Positions 1 through 59,640 of a stretch of DNA of 64,000 bases are shown piece by piece (within the stretch, counting starts at the first letter, position 1; every line of letters starts with the position of its first letter). The DNA is from Eledone cirrhosa (lineage: Eukaryota), in contig OZ024743.1 in the NCBI GenBank assembly GCA_964016885.1, forward strand, positions 237,770,001 through 237,834,000, in the 5' to 3' direction. Made by a program: the position numbers and the translations under genes. The notes beneath the pieces are model-generated. The model worked only from the letters and a program-made list of their open reading frames with translations. It ran no database searches and had not been told where the DNA came from.

Positions 1-1290
1 ATATAGTTCTTCACAATTCAGGCATTTAATGCAGTAAATTAGATTTCTGCTTTTGCAGTTCATATTTGCATTTGGGAATATTTTTCCAGTTTTTGTTTTC
101 ATATATTGACCAGCGTGTATGGATTGACATGTGCCACATCGTCTATCATTGCATTTAGATACAGTGAATGATTGGTCTTTGTTGTTAAGGTCAAACTTTG
201 CTTTTGTTAGTAATTGCTTCAAATTTTTCGGTTGTCTTTTACTAAGAGTCAAATATCGATCTGTGATTAAGCCTTTTAATTCATTACTTTGAGCAATGAT
301 CGGTAGGTTTGCTTTGGCAGTGTTGAAGATATTCTGGTGACATGGGTATGACCAGTTCTTGGTTTCTTCTTCCTTGGGTTGTCCTAAGTTGTTGTATAGG
401 TATTTTTATAGCCCGCTGTATGCCATTTTCTATAAGTAGAGATGGGTATTTTTGTTTGAGCAAAAATTCTCTTAGTTCTGTTAGGCGTTTGTACCTGGTA
501 TTCGTATCTTCTACAATGGTACAAATTCTTCTGGCTAGGCAGTATGGGATGTTGCGTTTTGTATGAGGTGGATGGCACGACTTAAAATTCAGATATTGAT
601 GGGTGTCTGTGTGTTTATAATATATATCCGTGGTAATAGTGGTGTCGTTTTTGATTATCATTATATCTAGGAATGGTAATTTGGTCCTACTCATCTCTTG
701 TGAATTGGACAGATGGGTGTAGGTTATTCAGGAGGATATTGAACTCATCCAGAGTATCTCGAGATTCTGTCCAGATGATGAAACAGTCGTCAAGGTATCT
801 CTTCCAAGATTTTTCAATGTACTTTCTAAAGTCAGTACTATATTTTTCCTCTATTTCTTGGTAGAGTTGTTGTTCTAAGTATCCCATTACAGAGTTCGCG
901 TAAACGGGAGCAAACTTCGTTCCCATCGCTGTGCCTCTAATTTGGATGTAATTCTTTCCATTGAAGAAGAAAGTGTTGTTTTCCAGAATAAGTTTAACTG
1001 CGTCTAATATAAATGGCGCTGTGAATCTGATGGGAATCACTTCTCTATGTTTTCCCACCCAGTATTTAACCGCCTTTATTCCTAAATCATGTGTAATGTT
1101 GGTGTAAAGGCTTACCACATCAAAACTAAGTAGAAGTGAATTCGTTTCCGTGATTTTGGGAAGATGGGACAGGAAATCGATATCATCCCGGATGAAACTG
1201 GGTATGTGAATACATAGAAGTTTCAAAATAATGTCAACAAAATTGCTTAGACGATGGGTGGGGCATGTTGGACCAGCTATAATAGGTCTA
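1..1290 (-). mobile_element. Penelope-like retroelement (Neptune-like), 5'-truncated and frameshifted: RT, Cys linker and start of GIY-YIG endonuclease; runs off the window edge
   Basis: ORFs 687-1337 and 284-694 carry PLE RT motifs LRPIIAG, SFDVVSLYTNI, GTAMGTKFAPVYAN, RYLDDCF, LPFLD, YYKHTDTHQYL..SCHP. Hand translation of the minus strand over 1-165 gives CNDRRCGTC and MNCKSRNLIYCIKCLNCEELY. Confidence 0.92.
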
Positions 1291-1337
1291 AGTTTTAAGT
1301 ATACATATTTTATATATACATATATATATATATACAA

Positions 1338-1985: not shown

Positions 1986-2056
1986 TGACCTGTTGCTTTT
2001 CTCTGTGTTGAATGTGTGGTGTGTATATATATGTATATGTATGTATATATATATAT
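1806..2056. repeat. (TA)n / (TATG)n microsatellites
   Basis: Direct inspection. Confidence 0.97.
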
Positions 2057-2681
2057 AAATGGAATAGAATGAAACGAAATTTCATTTCTCACTCTTAGTA
2101 CGGCGCTTACTTAAATGTAAGTATGTATGTATACGTACATACATATATGTATACAGACGTACAGTAGTATGTATATATATATACATACATTCACACATAT
2201 ATATATGCACGTATCGGTTTACCGAACATTTATTATAAGGCTCGGTCTGTTTGTTTGTAAACAAACAAACAGCCCGAATTACGCCGTACAGTGTTTAGGC
2301 AACCACGTCACCTTTTTGTTCAACACTGACACAGGAATGATGTACTAGTTTCAAGCTTATTAGCTATCGTCAGCATCGTATACCTTCCTGCCAGATGGTT
2401 GAACGTCTGAAAGTATATACTTTCCTTATGCATATTAACGGCTGAGCAGCCTAATTTGCATATCGAGTGAGTTCAGTCGGCCGGGCGCACCGAAAACGAT
2501 AAATGGAATAGAATGAAACGAAATTTCATTTCTCACTCTTAGTACGGCACTTACTTAAATGTAAGTATGTATGTATACGTACATACATATATGTATACAG
2601 ATGTACAGTAGTATGTATATATATATACATACATGCACACATATATATATGCACGTATCGGTTTACCGAACATTTATTATA
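2055..2681 (-). mobile_element. Non-coding partial-tandem unit (444-bp period, 183-bp direct repeats) containing a hammerhead ribozyme; PLE pseudo-LTR or retrozyme-like
   Basis: 2055-2237 and 2499-2681 are near identical (ataaatggaatagaatg...gaacatttattata). The HHR lies between them. Confidence 0.75.
2332..2390 (-). ncRNA. Type I hammerhead ribozyme, canonical core
   Basis: Minus strand reads caggaa-ggtatac-gatg CUGACGA u-agcu-aaua-agcu-u GAAA cuag UA cauc-a-uuccug. Stem I is gaug/cauc plus caggaa/uuccug; stem III is the palindrome ACUAGU. Confidence 0.88.
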
Positions 2682-2749
2682 CACACATATATATATATAT
2701 ACACATATACATATGTATATATATATATACATACATATATATATATATG

Positions 2750-2870
2750 ACAATACTATATCTCATTTCACACCTTTTATTATTAATGTTTCTGATGTTC
2801 TCTTGAGAGAATCGTTTTTGCTGAAAATATCGAATAATGTACACCATTTTTACCAGTATCACAAAAATAC
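2750..2870 (-). mobile_element. Possible degenerate PLE GIY-YIG C-terminal tail upstream of the HHR unit
   Basis: Hand translation ...FDIFSKNDSLKRTSETLIIKGVK* weakly resembles the R..E..I...P.LN end motif; contains stops. Confidence 0.3.
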
Positions 2871-2880
2871 TGGTCCCCCC

Positions 2881-2998
2881 CCACACACACATACATACAC
2901 ACACACATATATACACACACACATACACACGCGTACACTAACATACAAAGAGACATATACACACACACATACACACGCGTACACTAACATACAAAGAG

Positions 2999-3084
<86 letters not shown>

Positions 3085-3192
3085 CTCCGTATGAGACAAG
3101 AGCTGAAAAATATCTTTCAACATGTTAAAATATTCCCCACACCCGTACAGACATATTCCTACTGACCGATCCCTCTACCACGAATTACTCTG

Positions 3193-3288
<96 letters not shown>

Positions 3289-3410
3289 TTGTCTTAATAG
3301 ACACCTGAACTGTTGACCTGTCAACTTGACTGCAATTCACACACACATCCCTACTGACCATTATCACAACAATGAACCTCTTTACTACACACACACACAC
3401 ACACATATTT
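2881..3410. repeat. (CA)n microsatellite cluster with a short local duplication
   Basis: Long CA runs; acgcgtacactaacatacaaagagacatatacac occurs twice. Confidence 0.95.
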
Positions 3411-3815
3411 GTCTTAAAAAACTTATTTTTCAGTGACTTCTTAATCAGGCGAAAAAAGACACTCTTCGACAAACCTACATTTGGCGCAAAATCAATTTTT
3501 AACATTCACGTGACCTCAAAATTGTTTTGACCACGAGAAATTTTGCAACACGAATTGGCGCGAAACTTATTTTAATACATCTGGAGCCAGTTTTTTCACA
3601 TAAAGCAGGTAGAATTTCCAAAACTGATCAGATTAGAGCAAACATCACGGGCGCTCTATCTCAAAATTATTTTTGAAAAGCATTAGAAATGCGCAACCGA
3701 TAAAAACTTAAAACCAAAACTGAATACTAACCAATACTTATTACTAATTTTTACTTATTCCTAATTAAACTATTTTTCACTGGGAACAATTTGTCAGCAT
3801 TTTCTTTTCCTTTTA

Positions 3816-3818
<3 letters not shown>

Positions 3819-5680: not shown

Positions 5681-5711
5681 GATCAGGCCTTAAGAAGAAA
5701 ATAACAACTAT

Positions 5712-5822
5712 AATAATTGTTTCTACTTTAGGCACAAGGCCAGCAATTACCCAGTGCATTACTGGTACTTTATTTTATCGACCCCGTAAGGATGAAAGGC
5801 AAAGTCAACCTCGGCGGGATTT
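5712..5822 (-). mobile_element. tRNA-derived octopus-type SINE, 3' half
   Basis: Reverse complement of the 3' part of the SINE at 6244-6432. A second tail fragment lies at ~5932-5992. Confidence 0.85.
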
Positions 5823-6090
5823 TCTGTTCTTGGCACAGGGCAGCAATTGTCCCAGCGCATTGCTGATGCCTTGTTTTGGGCCCGGAGCGTGGAGGGCCGT
5901 AGCTCTATGCTGTAAAACAAACAATTATTCTAATAATTGTTTCTACTTTTGGCACAAGGCCAGCAATTATCTCAGTGTATTACTGGTACTTTTATAATAA
6001 TACTGAACAGTAAAACTCGGCTTCAATTATATGAGCTCCTTCTAAAGTCAACAGTTGACATGATCTTGTATCAGTAATGACGGTAATATA

Positions 6091-32232: not shown

Positions 32233-35200
32233 ATAGACCACCTGTGACCCATGGGTCATGTTCACTTAAAAATAATTTTTAAATAATTAAAATATAAACA
32301 AAATGTATATAATGTAAAATGTCATTGGAAAGCCAATATATGTATACGTGTATATGTGTGTGTGTATATGTACGTGTATATATATAAATGTGTGTGTGTG
32401 TGGGTGTCTGTGGCCTATATACACTGGTTACAGACACACACACACATACATCCTGTCCTAACACTTCGTTCAAAAGAATGCTTTGAACGCAACATTCTTA
32501 GTTGACTGGGTATCTTTCAGAAACACTCTGACATTTTCTTTTCGTTTTCCGCGGCTAAGGGCTACATACATTGACCGTGTTGGAATACAAGTCGTTCCAA
32601 ATAAACCAAGACGTTCTCCATAGTTTGTCCTTGTGCTTTATGAATAGTCAGGGCGAAGCACGATTGAACTGGAAATTGGCTTCGCTGCAAAGGGATATCC
32701 TCACCTTCGGATAGATTAATTCTTATTCTAGGTATCATAACGATCTCATTTATGAAAGCAGCAGTGTTGATTCTTGCTACTATGAGATTGTAGTGCAGTT
32801 CTTCCACGATCATGCGCGTTCCATTACAAAGCCTTGGAGAATTCAAGTTTCTCATAAGAATTATTGGCGATCCTTTTTTCAATTCCAGGTTATGTGGTGG
32901 CAGTCCTGATAGTTCAACCGAATCAAGGAATTCAGTTGGGAAATGAGTGGCATTGGTACCATCACTCACATAAATATAGGATCGGTACTCTTTTATGGTT
33001 CCAGGGAAGCGTCTGATACAGGTGGAATTGATGCTTCTCATCATTTCATTGAGAGGTACTAAGATGCAATTGTTCTTAAACACTTCAGCTGGATTGTCGT
33101 GATGCAGAAGGAGTCTTAAATAATACAGGTCACCACTTCGTGGAGAAACAGTGTATACTCGTCCCAAAACGTTCGCCTAAAAAGTCCCTTGAAATTGTTT
33201 TATTGTTTTCCCCACCTTTCTCTTTTCCCATCTCTTGTTACTCCAAGGGTAAAACTTTTGCACATCGGCATAATACAATGTTTTTGCAAACGGATCGCGA
33301 TCGCAAAGATCCATGAACTCAGCCAGAGTCGTCTTAGCCATTTATTGTTTACTTTAACAGCAGCATTGATCCGAAAGAAGATTTGATTTTCCTCAGGTAG
33401 ATGAACTTGAAGGCGAACTACGGCCGGTTTCTCTCATGAATTGGACATCCAATTACCAAGGCAACAGCTTCTGAAGGACAGGTATATCTTCCTGTTAAAT
33501 ACTGTATTATCTCATCTTCCCTGTTCACTCCAAACATTGCGTGATCACTGCCCTTCATGGTATATTTAATAACGTATTTAATCGATTTCACGGAAGAGCA
33601 CATCTCTACGTTTAGGTGGCAGTTGAACAGTTTTAATAGTTTCATATTGTAGGGAACCACCCATTCCGAAGTTATATTTCGACTTCCCCTTCCTTCTTGG
33701 TGCCCCTCAAATCCTCCCATTCCTGAAGACCGTCTTCTGTACACAGGATAAGAGTCCTCTCCACACAATGTATATTCATTGAAAGGCTTAGAGTACGGCT
33801 TACTGCACTTCCATCTTTCCAACACGGCGAATTGTTAGAGCAATTCGGACCATGGATCATGTGCTTCAGCACCAATTCATGACCCTCTCGATCTTTGTTT
33901 GGATCTGGTATTTCGGCTTGAACAAATTTATCGTATTCCTGCGGTCTGGGCTTGGAGGCTTCATTGAGCCATAGCAAACAGTGCACATGAGGAAGACCTC
34001 GCTTTTGATATTCGACTGTCAGCACGTAAGCAATACACTTACCAAATAGGCCATCTACTCCAGTAAGATACTTTCTTAACAGTTTCCGCTTCAGGTCAAA
34101 TACTCTGGCAATTAAATCTGGCCTGTCATGTGGCTTCTGATTCAGGAATAGGTTTTACCGGATTTCGGGCCAGTTTGGATTGCATGTCATTGTGATGAAG
34201 AACGAAGGATTGCCGTACTTCCGTATGTACATCATGGCATCCTGGCATCGCTCCATCATATATTTCGGTCCACAGATAAATGTGGAAGAGAGTATGATTC
34301 GCCTGCCAATATTGCGAAAATCGTCATCATTATTCAATGCGTCAGTAAGGCCCTTGTATGTTGTAGATCGCAATGATGTTTGATTTATTCGGATGTATTG
34401 CATTCTATCTTCTTCAATCTTCGCAGCCATGTCAACCAAATATTGCTGAAATAAACGACCGCCTCTGAGAAGCTGGTTGAATTTATTCTCATGGTTCATT
34501 ATTCGATAGGCATAGTAGCGCATTGGCGTCAACTTCCTGTTGTTGCTCATTAACAGCTCATGATGCCATCCGTCATCGCCAAAAGGAAAAAAATAGAACA
34601 TACTGCAAACTGTCCTAGGACCGATGGGACTCTGAGATTATTTGCAATTGTCCGCCTTTTTCTTTCAACAGAATGTGCCGTGCTTTTACTTGAAGTTCGG
34701 TGCTGTTTTGTATAATAACGGCAACTTCGTTTGCAGTTTGTGCATTGAATCTTCTCTCATGTTCCATTGCTTGTCTCCTATCAGGATCAATAATAATCGA
34801 AGCTTCGGGAATATTTTTAATTTGTTCTTTTGCCATTCGAAATGAAGCAACTGAGTATTATTTCCAATAATTCAACTATGTCGCGCTGAATGCCATCGTT
34901 ATGGAGTATCCTGATCCTCAAATCAACACTATCCTGAGGATCCAAGAAGTAAATTTGAAGAAATTGGGGTTGTTCGTTGGGATTAGGGGTTAATGAACCG
35001 ATGTAATGGTGAATTTGACCATGGATAACGATAGAAGGATTCCATCCACTCCTTGAGGGACGAACTTCTTCGGCCCCCAAAAATGTCATTGGGAACAGGC
35101 AGTTGTATTGTCTGAGGTTCTTCCTGAACTCGTTTGACCTAGGTTGATCAGTACTAAATAAACTGTGAAGTTCCTTGGGTAAAGGCTGCAATTTCCCCAA

Positions 35201-38861: not shown

Positions 38862-40520
38862 CTAAAATTGTTGTAAAACAGAACCAACAGCTGTATCCGA
38901 TGCATCAACCACAAGCGAAAGCTTTGCGCCGGAGACCGCGTGCGATGGAAGAGACGCTTTAGCAAGCTCAATGTTTGCAGAGTTAAACACTTCCAATTGT
39001 GCCATAGTCAAAGTAATATATTCATTCCTCTTACGACGATTTCTTAATAGTTCAATAAGAGGCGACAGGAGTTCAGCACAGTGAGGAATAAAACGTCTAT
39101 AAAAATTTAACAATCCGAGGAAATGGTGTAACTGACGAAGAGAAGGAGGAGGAAGGTCCTCAATAGCCTGTACTTTTTCAGGTAGAGGTCGAATACTCAC
39201 TTTATCAATCATATGTCCGAGAGAAGATGAGCCAAAAACACATTTAGCAGAGTTAATACATAAACGGTAATCCTGAAGGCGCTGGTAAAGCAGCTTTAAA
39301 TAGTGAATATGTTCTTCAGCAGAAGAACTGGCAATCAGCAGAACGTCGATATACGCATAGACAAAGTCCAAACTACGAATGACCTCGTCTATAAATCGTT
39401 GAAAAGTGCTAGCAGCATTTCTGAGGCCAAATGGCATTGTCAAAAATTCAAAAGAGCCGAAAGGTGTTGTTATTGCTGTTTTCGGAATATCCACAGGGTT
39501 AACTGGGATCTGATGGTAAGCTCGTACACGATCGAGCTTAAAAAATATTCGTGCTTCCTTGTAACGAAGACCCTTGGGAACCATATGCAGCAAGGACTGG
39601 TGGATGGACGAATCATTCCCAGTTGGAGCATGTGATCAAACTCAGCTTTTGCCGCCTTGAGTCAGTCCGGAGGTAAAGAACGAGGGCGAGAAAATACTGG
39701 AGCTCCGTTCGTAGAGATGAAATGCTTTATAGAGTGAGCAGGATTACTCACTTGGAAATTTAAGTTAGTAGGCGCCGGAAAAGAGTTTATGATATTCATC
39801 ACCTGTAGCAGCGATGAAAAATGTCAGGCTAACCGATGGAGCACTGGAATTTTTGCCATGAATTGAAAAGTTGGTAGTATTATCCAGGAGGCGTTGCTTA
39901 CGAACGTCCACCAAAAGCGAGTAGTGGTGGAGAAAATCTGCTCCCTGGATTGGATATGGCTGGTCAGCTATAATGAATATCCATTTAAAGTCGCGACGTA
40001 AATTTAGATCCAAAGAAAGTAAGATCTGACTAAAAGTTTTGATAGGCGAATGATTCACCGCCTGCAGGGTGATCTCTGAAAGAAGAGGGGTGTCCTTGAG
40101 GAATTTCGCAGGCCAAATACTGCAAGCACCACCATAATCCACTAGGAAAAGCTTGCTGGATAGAAAGTCTTCAACGAAAAATGCACGACTAGGGAGATAT
40201 GTACTGGGGACAGCTGTCGTGCTCAGTGTCCCACGCTTGCGTTTCCCGGATTGATATAAAAACAGGGTTTAATGCATCTATGAGCTTTTTCCGCGAAACG
40301 TTCATGGTACCAGCAAATAGATGAAGAGTCAGGAGAAAAAGAACGGCGTCCCAGTGAGGAAGGATGACTGGACGATCGTCGTCGACGCTGGCGAGAACCC
40401 TCTGCCGCGCACCATCCTTTAACTTTCTTGGTTAATTCCAGGATGGCCTGTAACGCTGCTGAATTGAAGCTAGGAGTAGCTGTTGCCATTGTAGCAGGTG
40501 CTAAAGACGAGCGGTTCATA
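38862..40520 (-). mobile_element. Ty3/Gypsy LTR-retrotransposon fragment: gag end, protease, RT and RNase H start
   Basis: CWYHERFAEKAHRCIKPC; FLVDYGG, GADFL; [70 protein letters not shown]. Confidence 0.93.
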
Positions 40521-41249: not shown

Positions 41250-42348
41250 GGTCCCCGAGGCAATGTCCCTCGGGACCGAAGATTTAACGGCTTGGTGCCG
41301 AGTGCTCATAGGTGGCAGGACATGAAAATACGAGCGCAAACGGTTCACATAGAGTGTAGGATCGACTGGGGCAAGCATCTACCCTGACAAAGACAAAGGC
41401 GCGTCGTACAAATGTTCGGCTAGGGAGAATCCAAGGTCCTCCTTAACTGAAGTGCGGATGCCGAGTAGTACTATGGGGAGGTACTCGCCTTAACGTAGAG
41501 TATCCAAATAGGCACGTAATGCGGCCTTCAACTGGCGATGAAAACGCTCCAGCATTCCATTAGATGCAGGATGGTAACTGGTTGTCCGGATACGTTGAGC
41601 ACCGATGATATTTGTTAGCTCCGAGCAAAGGTGAGATTCGAACTGCCTACCACGGTCTGTAGTAATAGTAGTAAGAACACCGTAGCGCGATATCCATCCT
41701 GATTCCGGGGCTCGCGCTACAGATTCAGCAGTAATGTCACTAAGAGGGATGGCTTCATGCCATCGGGTGAAACGATCAATGCAGGTCAGGATGTACGAAT
41801 ATCCACGACTGACTGGCCAAGGTCCCACGAGATCAATATGTATGTGGCGAAAACGTGCATCAGGTGTACTGAAGGTACCGAATGGGGCGCGGATGTATTT
41901 ATGCACCTTCGACTGCTGGCACAAGAGACAAGAATGAGACCATACAGTAATATCGCGTCTTATATTAGGCCAGAAGAATCTAGCCGTTATGGGTTTTACT
42001 GAGGCCGAGGCTCCAGGGCGTGAAAGGTTATGCAGAGCCTCGAATACGATTCTTCGATGAGTCTCAAGAACGAAAGGACGAGGTGAATCAGTAGACACGT
42101 TACAAGTCGCAACTTCTGAAGAGGACAAATCCAGTGAGTCCAAAGATGGCTGATCTGTAGATAAGAGATTTAGGTCAATCTCCTGAGTTGGTGATATAGC
42201 ACTAATAGGCAGTCTGGATAATGCATCTGCCGCGGTGTTTTTCGTGCCAGAAATATGTTGAATATCACTGGTAAACTGCGAAACCAAATCGCGATGTCTC
42301 GTTTCCCTTGGCGAATATCTATCAGGTTTTGATTTCAAAGCAAAGGTA
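41250..42348 (-). mobile_element. Ty3/Gypsy fragment: RNase H end and integrase
   Basis: [15 protein letters not shown]; HNLSRPG...CLLCQ; [44 protein letters not shown]. Confidence 0.93.
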
Positions 42349-43035
42349 AGTTACGTGATAAATGTAGATAGGAATTTGTAAATATACTTTAGTTGTTTAA
42401 GTAACGCCCGAATGAGTATCTGCCGCCACCAACTAACTTGCCTTCCGCCTTTGGGTCTCGATCGACAGGATGGCGGAGGACGGCGAGAAAAACGCACTGA
42501 AACAGCCACTCCACCTCACAGGGCTCGCACCTGCGGACGGCCAACTCTGCCCCGACAGTGTATATCTTGTTAGCGATTTTGGTATGAATCTTCTTGTTTT
42601 ACGAGTTAGAACTATTTATTTCAAAATGATTATATATTTTAAAAACCTTTCATCATCATTTAATATCAGAACATGTGTTAAGGTGTGCTCCAAACATCAG
42701 ATAAGTAAGGAGAATGTTAATTATATCATTAAATTCCTCTACATTTTTGATTATTTAAAAAAGGATTTGAAAATTACAGGCAGTGTCTTTCATAAGAAAT
42801 ATGGTAACGAAGAGGTTAATGTGTTTATATTTATTTAAAATCCTTCCATGATAATTAGAAATCATAGGCATTGTATGATAGAAAAAGGGTTAAATGGAAA
42901 CATATTTCTGGTTTAAATGAGAACACATATTACAAACACAGATATTCGCACATACTGCTACGTCTCTGTCTAACCACACGCACTAAAAGTCAGTGTATAT
43001 ATTTGTCTAAAAACCTTCTACCATTATTTTTCTGT

Positions 43036-56099: not shown

Positions 56100-56920
56100 T
56101 GAAATTTGAAAAGAGATGCATAGGGCTTATAGCTGCAGATACTTGAAGGCATTATACAGAAAAATAAGGCAAGACTTTTGGTCCACAGCCGTAAAAAGTG
56201 AAGTCAAAAGATGGGAACTTCCTCATCATAGATCCAGTGGGAATTATGAGTCAGTGGACTGAACACTTTAAATATATGTTTGATAACCCATCAGTAGTTG
56301 ATGAGGAAAGTATTAATGGACTGTCACAAAAGGAGACGGTAACAGATCAATGATCCAACCATTGATGAGATAAGGTCTACTATCAAAGAGATAAACATAG
56401 GATAAGCTCCAATTTGGATGGAATACCCGTCGAGCCGATCCGCTTTGGAGGAGACAATGCTGCTACAGCCGTTCATAGGCTCTCGATTTACAAGGGCAAG
56501 GGTTCCAATTCAGAATGTGGTGATTGTCATGGTATAAGTCTGCAACAAGTGTCACTATACCAAGTATTTGCAGACCTTACCAAAGCCTTCGATACTGTTA
56601 ATGGTAGTGCATTGTGGGTTATATTAGGTAAACTTGTATTCCCCCATGAATTTGTTGGAATATTTAAAAAAACTCCATCAAAATATGAAAGCAAAAGTGA
56701 ACTTCAAAGGGACACTGTCAGAGCCAATATCAGTGGAAAATGGTGTGAAGCAAGACGACATACTTGCATCCACTCTGTTCTCCATCTACTTTGCCGGGGT
56801 GCTGACATATGCATTCCAAGCCTTCGAAATCGGTGTATACTTGCGAATTAGAACTTCTGGCAAAGTATTTAATCTAAGACTGTTTAACACCAAGTCCAAA
56901 ACAGCATCAGCTCTCTCTTT
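56100..56920 (+). mobile_element. RTE (BovB-like) LINE RT fragment with internal deletions
   Basis: DGIPVE, IYKGKG, VFADLTKAFDTV, NGVKQDDILASTLFSIYF, RTSGKVFNLR. Confidence 0.88.
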
Positions 56921-56924
56921 TTAG

Positions 56925-59640
56925 GGGTAGGTAAACCCATAGCTAAACAGAGAGAGGGTGGTGTTGGCTTCGCCATTAGAACATCCCTGCTTGATCGTAT
57001 GGAATGTCCTACTGGTGTAACCGATGGTATTATGAAGCTTTGTATTCCTCTGAGATATGGCCGTTATGTAACACTTTTATCTGTTTATGCACCAACCTTA
57101 CAGGACAGTGAGATGGTCATTGGTTCTTTCTATGAGTCTCTTCGTGCTGCCATTGCATGCACATCTACTAACGATAAATTATTACTTCTCAGTGATTTTA
57201 ATGCTCGTGGGGGTACTGATCACGAGACATGGGGCGCCCTCGATCCATTTGGTTTTGGTAAAATGGACACCAGCGACCTGAGGTTGCTTGAACTCTGCTC
57301 AGAACTCAACTTAACCATCTGCAACACTCTTTTCCGTCAGAAGCTCAAATATAAATATAACAGATATCATCCAAAATCCAAGCATGGACAGATGATTGAT
57401 TTCATCATAACTCTTAAACGAGATCTAAGTGATGTATGTACAGTGCGTGTGTTGCGTAGTGCAGAATGCGGCTACAAATTAGTGCGAGGAAAGTTCAAGA
57501 TGAGTATTCACAAAAGGATTCGTATTAGTGGAGTGAAAATACCGAAACGCATTGATGTCACCAAATTGAGACAAGCAGATGTGCATGCAACCCTAACTGA
57601 AAGATTTGATGGTCTTTTGAAGGCACTTGGGAAAACTTTAAAGATAAAGTTTACTCAGTGGGAGCTGATGTACTTGGCTTCAGAACCAAGAAACACCAGG
57701 ATTGATTCGATGACAACAATCCTAATATCAATCAGCTACTGAAAACCAAGCACACTCTATGAAAAGCTCCTGAATCAGAATCCCGTAGCACAACCAGCTG
57801 TCAGAAAAGCCTACATAGATCACAGGGCATCACTGCAACTCGAACTGCCCAGGATGCAAAATGAGTAGTGGAGTAATATCTCTTCGGAAATCGAACAGGC
57901 TTTTAACACCAAAGATTCGAAGTCATTTTACTCATTGATACACCAAGTCTTCGGCCCACCAAGTAACTCAGTAACTCCTCTGAGATCTAAAGACGATGGC
58001 AATATCACCGTCAAAGAGTCATCAAAAATCCTTCAGCGTTGGGAGGAACATTTTACTGACCTATTTGACAAACCATCAGCAGTAAATTTTGGAGTAATAG
58101 AGGGCCTTACTCAATGTGAAACAGTCCACCGTATGGGTCGACTTTCCTCTGCTGATGAGATAAAGCTTGCAGTCAAGCAGGTTAACTCTGGCAAGGCACC
58201 AAGTCCAGATGGTATCTCAGTCGAACTGCTGAAAGTCGGTAGTGATAATGTAACAGAAGCAATAAACAACTTCATCACTGATTGCTGGAATGGGACCCCA
58301 GTTCCGCAAGACTGGATCAACAGTATTTTGTTATCATTAGGTGAATTGGCAGTATCGGTAGAGGGTTGGACGCCATGCTTTCTAGCATAGTTACGTCTCT
58401 TTGCAGTCTGAGTTCAAATCCCGCCGAGGTTAACTTTGCCTTTCATCCTTACGGGGTCGATAAAATAAAGTACCAGTAATGTACTGGGTAGTTGCTGGCC
58501 TTGTGCCTAAAGTAGAAACAATTATATAAAGGACGGTGAATTGGCAGTATCGTTAGTGAGTCGGACGTCATGCTTTCCAGCATAGTTACGTCTCTTTACG
58601 GTCTGAGTTATAATCCCGTCGAGGTTAACTTTGCCTTTCATCCTTACGGGGTCGATAAAATAAAGTACCAGTAATGTATTGGGTAATTGCCGGCCTTGTG
58701 CTAAAAGTAGAAACAATTATACAAAGGCAAAGGTGAAAAATCGATATGTGGAAACCGTAGCATCACTTTGTTGGAGGCTGTTGGCAAGGCTCTTGCAGGA
58801 CTTTTGTTCAACAGTCTAGAAGAAGATATCTGTCCTATAGCTATCCCAGAATCACAGAGTGGTTTTAATGGAGGAAGGGGAGCAGTTAACATGATTTTCT
58901 CTGGAAGACAAATACAAGAAAAATGCATTGAGCAGTGTGTCCTATATCAAGTCTGTGTCGACCTAACGAAGGCTTTCGACACAGTTAACGGAGAGGCATT
59001 CTGGATAATACTTGGAAAAGTAGGATGTCCACCCAAGTTTGTGAGTATGCTAAAGCAGCTGCACAGAAATATGAAAGCTTGGGTTACCTTCAATGGTCAA
59101 CTATCTGGGGAAATCCCAATTGACAACGGAGTAAAGCAAGGTGATATTCCTGCTCCTACACTTTTCTCCATCTTCTTTGTTGCCTTGCTCACACACGCTT
59201 TTCATGATTGTGACAGGCATTCTCTTACGGTTCAGAACCACTGGAAAGGTTTTCAACTTAAGAAGGTTTAATGCCAAGACAAAAACTTTGATCAGGGACC
59301 TTCTTTACGCCGACGACGCTGACTTCCTAGCACACACAGAAGCTGACATGCAACACATTATGGACCGTTTCTCATTCTCATGTACATCATTTGGGCTTAC
59401 AATCAGCCTTAAAAAGACGAAAGTAATGTTACCCCTGCTTCTCGAGAACCATATACTGAACCCCATATCATGGTTGATGGAACCAGGTTGGGAGTAGTAG
59501 ATAAATTTGTCTACTTGGGTAACACACTCTCAAATGATGGCTCCTTGGATGCTGAAATACATCTGCGCATCCAGAAGGCCTCTGTTGTCTTCGGAAAATT
59601 GGAAAAGAGAGTTTGGGCAAAATGCAACATTACCGCATAA
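56925..59640 (+). mobile_element. RTE (BovB-like) LINE, EN + RT, decayed, interrupted by a SINE dimer
   Basis: GGVGFAI, SVYAPTL, DFNAR, HPKSKH..MIDFI; GKAPSPDGIS, PESQSGF, VDLTKAFDTV, GVKQGDIPAPTLF, LLYADD, FGLTISLKKTKV. Confidence 0.93.
58340..58718 (+). mobile_element. Head-to-tail tRNA-SINE dimer (58340-58525, 58531-58718) inserted in the LINE
   Basis: Two full SINE units; the LINE frame resumes ILLSL|YKGKG across the insert. Confidence 0.92.

Follow-up and report, generated by a model that had tools for sequence, protein, structure and literature searches.

The 64,000-nt window of the Eledone cirrhosa genome analysed here (contig OZ024743.1) carries a copy of a short tandem element that is, with very little doubt, a non-LTR retrozyme, a class already known. 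Its features point, with a probability of roughly 0.7, to a cycle in which the retrozyme would be transcribed from its own octamer-TATA promoter and copied from a circle by the enzyme of a resident Penelope-like element (PLE). Two variants on the class are described: an internal U6-like promoter common to distant families, and an insertion anatomy that links the element to PLE enzymes and to a template without a 5' end. In the literature covered on the animal retrozyme cycle, what transcribes the element and what enzyme moves it are two open steps (PMC7229834; bioRxiv 10.64898/2026.07.22.740005). The genome supplies a mutable 12-bp box and TATA, two mapped reverse-transcription starts and candidate PLE proteins with long frames, and transcription and mobilisation are thereby open to direct experiment.

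Read on the minus strand, the 627 bp of the window copy run from the end of one unit (2681-2499) through the box, TATA, hammerhead and hairpins to the end of the next (2237-2055), followed by (AT)n (Table 1). Units are numbered from 2681 and again from 2237, which makes 2499 and 2055 position 183; the predicted cut falls after position 339. The preliminary description had proposed 1.4 copies of a 444-nt monomer, the whole bracketed by 183-bp direct repeats, and had derived it from a circular or tandem RNA by reverse transcription; we measured 1.41 units, and our analysis supports that origin. The repeats, 2055-2237 and 2499-2681, are 98% alike and lie 444 bp apart. The three differences between them hardly recur elsewhere (1, 3 and 0 occurrences against 175, 206 and 56). 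At insertion the two were probably identical, and they have since aged by about 1%. The repeat at 2499..2681 shows one difference from its family, rare in other loci, and the unique part of the copy differs from subfamily A at 3 sites. The hairpin previously placed at 2243-2278 with 17-bp arms exists, its actual extent being 2277-2242 with 16 pairs in 17 positions and a 2-nt loop; one pair is due only to a private change at 2247 (A in 31/31 other subfamily-A units). AATAAA is found at 2234-2229, but its reading as a polyadenylation signal had to be given up: the C and D units checked lack it, and copies continue for another 120-180 nt to end in (AT)n, without poly(A).

Table 1. Features of the retrozyme insertion and of the adjoining PLE piece (window positions)
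Feature	Position	Strand	Remarks
Retrozyme insertion	2055..2681	-	627 bp = 1.41 units of 444 bp; 5' truncation at 2681
3' terminus of retrozyme insertion	2055	-	distal fixed site, then (AT)n
"Tail" between the two fixed 3' ends	2055..2112	-	spans unit positions ~126 to ~183; terminal 14 nt match those ending a resident PLE family
AATAAA	2229..2234	-	not conserved across families; not at copy ends
(GTTT)n/(AAAC)n hairpin	2242..2277	-	length varies between copies
Type I hammerhead motif	2332..2390	-	dimer type, with palindromic helix III; cut predicted at 2343|2342; helix I mismatch private to this copy at 2338
Predicted transcription start	2384..2389	-	2389 by host TATA-to-start distance, 2384 by box-to-start distance
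TATA element (GTATATAC from 2420)	2409..2424	-	within 16-bp palindrome
POU/octamer box TATGCAAATTAG	2451..2462	-	12/12 to box at -78 of host U6 on C9
T4 run	2493..2496	-	possible Pol III stop; not significant against shuffles
5' copy of 183-bp repeat	2499..2681	-	end of previous unit; pseudo-LTR-like
Neptune/Nematis-type PLE (family 2), 5'-truncated 3' end	2746..3818	+	ends in (AT)n

The hammerhead consists, on the minus strand, of the core CUGACGA (2373-2367), helix II (2366-2353), GAAA (2352-2349) and helix III, ACUAGU (2349-2344), and the motif predicts cleavage at A2343|C2342. Stem I does begin at 2390, where CAGGAA pairs with TTCCTG at 2337-2332. The ribozyme had been called intact, which is true of its catalytic core; a private G>A at 2338 (G in 30/31 other subfamily-A units) breaks the fifth helix I pair. 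Rfam recorded no hammerhead in the window at its gathering score (0 matches), nor among 97 matches to E = 10, and in the free-energy fold of the 71-nt motif the hammerhead was not formed (z -0.49); as both miss the motif, covariation was used to test the ribozyme, in 174 units from families A-F. The Rfam microRNA matches in the window were rejected as AT-repeat artefacts. Pairs 1-5 of helix I and pairs 2-5 of helix II are each kept in 94-100% of the units with both sides changing, pair 3 of helix I being U.G in 68, A-U in 41, G.U in 36, U-A in 21 and G-C in 6. Helix III is palindromic in 162 of the 174 (ACUAGU 153, AUGCAU 9), a motif of the dimer type known from type I hammerheads of animals (PMC4209133). 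The exact core has 25,110 genome matches, against 0 for its reversed control, and is hence not a chance occurrence. The hammerhead assignment thus follows from core sequence and covariation, and since helices I to III covary while helix III remains palindromic, cutting appears to be selected.

A U.U lies at the base of helix II in 138/174 units and throughout the family of the window copy. Axolotl HHR_Amex2, which shares this feature, cuts weakly alone and well as a dimer (PMC7229834), and of 9 Xenopus retrozyme dimers a single one showed cleavage in vitro (bioRxiv 10.64898/2026.07.22.740005). The window copy has one ribozyme, other copies of the family 2-8; the 2026 preprint counts copies with two as active. 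With a single ribozyme it cannot excise a unit-length RNA, and the private helix I mismatch makes strong cutting by this copy the more unlikely. It is therefore not the self-contained cassette that had been suggested, having one mismatched ribozyme and encoding no reverse transcriptase, and is probably an inert dead end.

Rather than being unique to this locus, the duplication is one copy of a high-copy family that is young and dispersed. Within the 3.0-Gb genome, a 316-bp core gave 2,384 candidates, 40 of which were scored and found to be 98-100% alike on many contigs, and a 24-mer near the 3' end gave 39,204 matches (control 1). Three subfamilies, A (the window type, 444 bp), B (~423 bp) and C (~480-490 bp), differ at 30-48 of ~250-270 sites; a further family, D, is ~65% like A, and another, E, shows no significant likeness to A. 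Box and ribozyme occur together 19,916 times in A/B/C and 10,077 times in other families, some 30,000 units in all (controls 0), where D and E were found by a pattern requiring the box, so that families without it would be missed. The units have the marks of retrozymes: a short low-GC tandem unit, one ribozyme per unit and no protein. Animal non-LTR retrozymes (PMC7229834) are alike in their type I hammerhead with a short palindromic helix III, their low-GC unit of a few hundred bp, their range from dimers to long arrays and their lack of coding sequence. They differ in unit size, 150-450 bp being described there, whereas the 444-490 bp found here lie at or above the upper end; no internal promoter or fixed two-site 3' end is described in the passages covered; and expression and circles have been shown for them. 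Family D (L192-L221, G000:C1:5738332-5751969) has units of 466-469 bp, a 38-unit array, and two fixed 3' ends and an (AT)n target as in the window family. Family E (L196, L227-L235) is more GC-rich with AUGCAU as helix III, and pieces of it are joined directly to PLE sequence at L228 and L225. The latter, a family-E piece with a truncated PLE frame, was considered as a pseudo-LTR and, as one case, not accepted.

The preliminary description had also singled out an octamer, ATGCAAAT (2461-2454, minus strand), and a 16-bp TATA-containing palindrome, GAAAGTATATACTTTC (2424-2409), and both are present. The octamer is kept in 28/32 A, 36/49 B and 16/16 C units. The palindrome is kept in 27/32 A and 15/16 C units and in only 2/49 of subfamily B, in which the TATA core survives in 42/49; it is the core, not the palindrome, that is conserved. 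Among host genes, U6 (C5, C9 and a cluster on C19), RNase MRP and the best U6atac have TATG(C/G)(A/T)AAT(T/G)AG 77-79 bp before the start and a TATA with a leading G at -31 in all five promoters. The element box TATGCAAATTAG scores 19.6 on the profile of these five boxes (host genes 17.7-19.9), and the profile has 2 matches in 492,484 background positions, both of them element copies. Ten further U6 and five further U6atac matches, which have no box and look like promoterless retrocopies, were left out. No such box was found upstream of 10 U1 and 12 U2 loci, which share TCAGT at -56 to -58. Likeness to the U1/U2 promoter was rejected, the element scoring -6.6 to -19, whereas host genes, each omitted in turn from the profile, score +1.1 to +29.8; in A, C and E2 the highest-scoring position is where it would be expected, and a weak likeness remains.

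Among families A, D and E, the box is identical at 11-12 of 12 positions while the following 29 nt agree in only 9-13, and box and TATA lie 41-43 bp apart in five families or subfamilies, with 39-60 bp from TATA to ribozyme. Since box and spacing are fixed while neighbouring sequence and ribozyme distance vary, the two form a constrained DNA module, conserved in distant families as the earlier reading required and resembling host U6-type promoters. Host geometry also predicts a start at 2389, close to the 2390 proposed before. With the host Pol III type 3 promoters (U6, RNase MRP, U6atac) the module shares the 12-bp box, a TATA mostly preceded by G, and their order; it differs in its spacing (46-48 bp in all five host genes, hence 4-6 bp shorter here), in the sequence between box and TATA, and in its place inside a mobile unit, where the promoter would be heritable only via read-through or a circle. 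Predicted RNA hairpins also take in both motifs, in five of five folded families for the box and in four for TATA, so that part of their conservation may be structural. On balance, we consider it likely that box and TATA are a real promoter. This promoter is not described in the literature covered, though an earlier description may exist.

Some observations on host promoters and read depth are noted here in their own right. The host U6, MRP and U6atac promoters (L141, L142, L143, L185, L186) are unusually compact, with a POU-type box at -78 and TATA at -31, and the U6 promoter is a by-product useful for small-RNA expression in Eledone cirrhosa; host U1 and U2 instead show TCAGT near -57 and a TATA-like run near -32. 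In 5 of 10 C19 U6 copies (L147, L148, L150-L152), a ~190-bp repeat directly follows TATA, with the TATA region duplicated on both sides; by eye, it resembles window 5699-5992 and 58340-58727. Read depth over 2385-2499 is about fivefold lower in run X5 than in X1, which would fit a promoter-skipping transcript; this was not counted as evidence, as the run is not on record as RNA and contig depth cannot rank parts of a gene.

Which polymerase would use the promoter can be judged from several features. Pol III is favoured by the box, which in the host is specific to Pol III genes, by the lack of AATAAA conservation and by the first T4, which comes only at the unit 3' end: in a tandem, that at 2493..2496 is the earliest run of at least four T downstream of the predicted start. 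The first T4 lies at +339, +347 and +274, distances reached by 702, 600 and 282 of 2000 shuffles (p 0.35, 0.30 and 0.14), and a depletion of T runs downstream of the predicted start is accordingly not significant. Units of B, C and D contain T5-T8 runs, at which most Pol III transcripts would be stopped before the next promoter, so that read-through would be needed. An octamer and TATA at such a distance also recall Pol II immunoglobulin promoters. Newt satellite 2 (Coats, Zhang and Epstein 1994) is reported to have an octamer within its promoter. Like the present element it is a tandem repeat containing a hammerhead, and its internal promoter is cited as of the Pol II snRNA type (PMC2220036), whereas the module here matches host Pol III type 3 and fails the host U1/U2 profile. 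Against Pol III stands the shortened box-to-TATA spacing, snRNA promoter spacing being described as stringent (PMC1761439). Transcription by Pol III would have close to an even chance, transcription by Pol II is only slightly less likely, and it is unlikely that box and TATA are no promoter at all.

Insertions were mapped as 102 arms in 62 loci, all from the first 22 Mb of one contig and sampled mostly by the 3' 24-mer; five of the loci (L307-L311) were chosen from ribozyme matches and are biased to longer copies, and L305 and L306 served as references, not samples, in the mapping of arms and 5' ends. At one of two fixed sites ~57 nt apart end 87/102 arms, mostly into (AT)n, 38 of them between positions 101 and 140 and 49 between 161 and 200, almost always close to 126 or 183. 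The 5' ends are scattered round the unit and copy length ranges from 0.1 to >7 units; the endpoints, which had been expected to be circularly permuted, are thus not freely so, as only the 5' ends vary. About a third of the arms (34/102) are longer than one unit, without coding sequence between units. Of 27 head-to-head pairs, 20 combine a distal with a proximal end, 7 have a non-canonical end, and none is distal with distal or proximal with proximal. What defines a PLE insertion is the combination of partial tandems, a truncated arm in inverted orientation and a tail confined to one end (PMC8557442), and the PLE tail is the stretch between two reverse-transcription start sites (PMC11167929).

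The genome contains 10,596 GIY-YIG candidates and frames of 844-1096 codons with reverse transcriptase (RT) and GIY-YIG. Because the endonuclease is C-terminal and stands behind a Cys-rich linker, as described for Neptune/Nematis-type PLEs (PMC8557442), the resident PLEs are of that type. Their two ends are separated by 68 nt in family 1 and by ~40 nt in family 2, in both cases in (AT)n. The family 2 end is TTCTATTCC(A/G)TTTA plus 3 nt and the distal end of the retrozyme is TTCTATTCCATTTAT; 13-14 of 14 nt are identical, in a T-rich 14-mer, with no longer match in 50 PLE loci. Extended homology to an autonomous partner was sought in these 50 GIY-YIG loci, which held only nested retrozyme copies. 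Seamless head-to-head joints of PLE and retrozyme, with no flank between, occur in 2/62 loci (L287 with family 2, L293 with family 1) and in none of a second set of 69. In the window, the retrozyme stands head-to-head with the PLE piece at 2746..3818 across 64 nt of AT/AC repeat; the two might be a single insertion, but against this stand the intervening simple repeat and the fact that both elements target such sequence. Taken together, the element is very probably mobilised by PLE enzymes, and PLEs are well supported as the partner at the level of the class.

Similar to Neptune/Nematis PLEs and the non-autonomous MRC1 (PMC8557442; PMC11167929), the retrozyme has partial tandems, an inverted 5'-truncated arm, a one-end tail, two reverse-transcription starts and AT-rich or (TA)n targets. 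It differs in having no reading frame, a tail of ~57 nt against 30-40, a hammerhead that is canonical, not minimal, and a match of only 14 nt to a resident PLE end. PMC7229834 names PLEs only as candidate movers of animal retrozymes, and the mechanism is called unresolved in bioRxiv 10.64898/2026.07.22.740005. That work treats vertebrate retrozymes as PLE derivatives; PLE co-occurrence and proposed PLE mobilisation are common to both studies, whereas its case is made from co-occurrence and pseudo-LTR similarity and ours from insertion anatomy, extended homology not having been found. Elsewhere in the window, 1-1300 (minus strand) is a 5'-truncated Neptune/Nematis-type PLE, from RT to GIY-YIG, 96% alike to L064, L065 and L070. 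By eye, the pseudo-LTR of a family 1 PLE (L061, query ~85-125) contains a minimal hammerhead-like motif with U3-A8 replacing C3-G8 and a palindromic helix III, ACCGGU, like the Schistosoma variant (PMC4209133).

As to the template, a linear one is expected to leave its 5' end as a pile-up of full-length copies. Among the 88 arms whose 3' ends are canonical, the cut site is crossed by 50, with 3 more stopping no farther than 8 nt from it, and the predicted start is crossed by 47, with 3 stopping there; by our own estimate from the overall length decay, about 2-3 stops are expected. There is no pile-up at either, so the main template is neither cut linear RNA nor RNA beginning at the start site. 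Within one array, units mostly differ by 0-3 changes, and in some arrays rare alleles are common to all units (12 in L305, 3 in L307); L304 and L015, each two separate insertions, were excluded from this reading. A circular template would fit; conceivable alternatives are a long uncut multimer or local duplication, the latter of which can also give uniform arrays.

In the cycle that we propose, box and TATA in a tandem copy would start an RNA ~47 nt before the cut site, as host promoter geometry suggests, and some transcripts would read into the next unit, gaining two ribozymes and the next promoter. The ribozymes would pair via their palindromic helix III and excise a unit-length RNA to be closed by a host ligase, excision and circle closure being established for other animal retrozymes. 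A protein presumably of the Neptune/Nematis type would then nick (AT)n and prime at either of the two sites, often on both strands, the fixed ends, one-sided tail and inverted arms being what is observed. Synthesis would circle round the putative circle until a random stop, consistent with the observed spread of lengths, and in the window copy would have ended after 1.41 units. A Pol III promoter lying upstream does not normally survive retroposition. It is conceivable, and we put it forward only tentatively as somewhat doubtful, that several retrozyme families of this genome, with about 30,000 units, captured an external U6-type promoter of the host and are Pol III type 3-driven, circle-propagated retroelements; the promoter would survive because ribozyme-cut read-through RNA circularises and the PLE enzyme copies round the circle. 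If true, this would explain the heavy transcription of animal retrozymes and their need for tandems.

The same element and PLE partner could also work from long uncut linear read-through RNA of tandem source loci, with a ribozyme that stays silent or is gated by protein while copying proceeds, as it does in the anole Poseidon element. Arrays as long as the 38 units of family D and the passage of half the arms through the cut site would agree with this, as would the finding that ribozyme mutants left anole PLE insertion in vitro unaffected, with no reads ending at the cut site (PMC11167929). However, the covariation of helices I to III and the palindromic helix III speak for selected cutting, the 5' ends do not pile up at start or cut site, and circles predominate among the retrozyme RNAs of coral, mussel and axolotl (PMC7229834), so that we regard such a template as rather unlikely. 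It is also improbable, though conceivable, that octamer and TATA are arms of two conserved RNA hairpins in units read through from outside promoters: the folds mentioned above, the spacing unlike that of host Pol III genes and the negative U1/U2 profile would allow it, but the box stays constant where its pairing arm varies (ATGCAT, TTTCAT, TTACAC), it is identical to that of host U6 and MRP and nearly absent from background sequence, and subfamily B keeps the TATA core without a TATA hairpin.

Lastly, the units might be solo pseudo-LTRs of an autonomous PLE, or a satellite grown by unequal crossover, in place of an element retroposing in its own right. Xenopus retrozymes do resemble PLE pseudo-LTRs (bioRxiv 10.64898/2026.07.22.740005), and some arrays alternate variants and spacings. 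Yet none of the 50 PLE loci ends in this sequence and the sampled PLE ends are without the box, many arms exceed one unit with nothing coding in between, and the copies, with their fixed 3' ends and inverted arms, are scattered across many contigs, all of which makes this reading very improbable beside that of a retrozyme copied from a circle by a PLE enzyme.

Other repeats share the window with the retrozyme. A 21-kb strand-biased satellite at 9582-30422 has a 21/41-bp unit with a CCAAATAAAAAACGGA core and 68% matches, and fragments of a Helitron (Pif1, Helitron_like_N), an RT, an integrase and an endonuclease/RT lie at 32562-34637, 38862-39635, 41490-42350 and 56888-59497.
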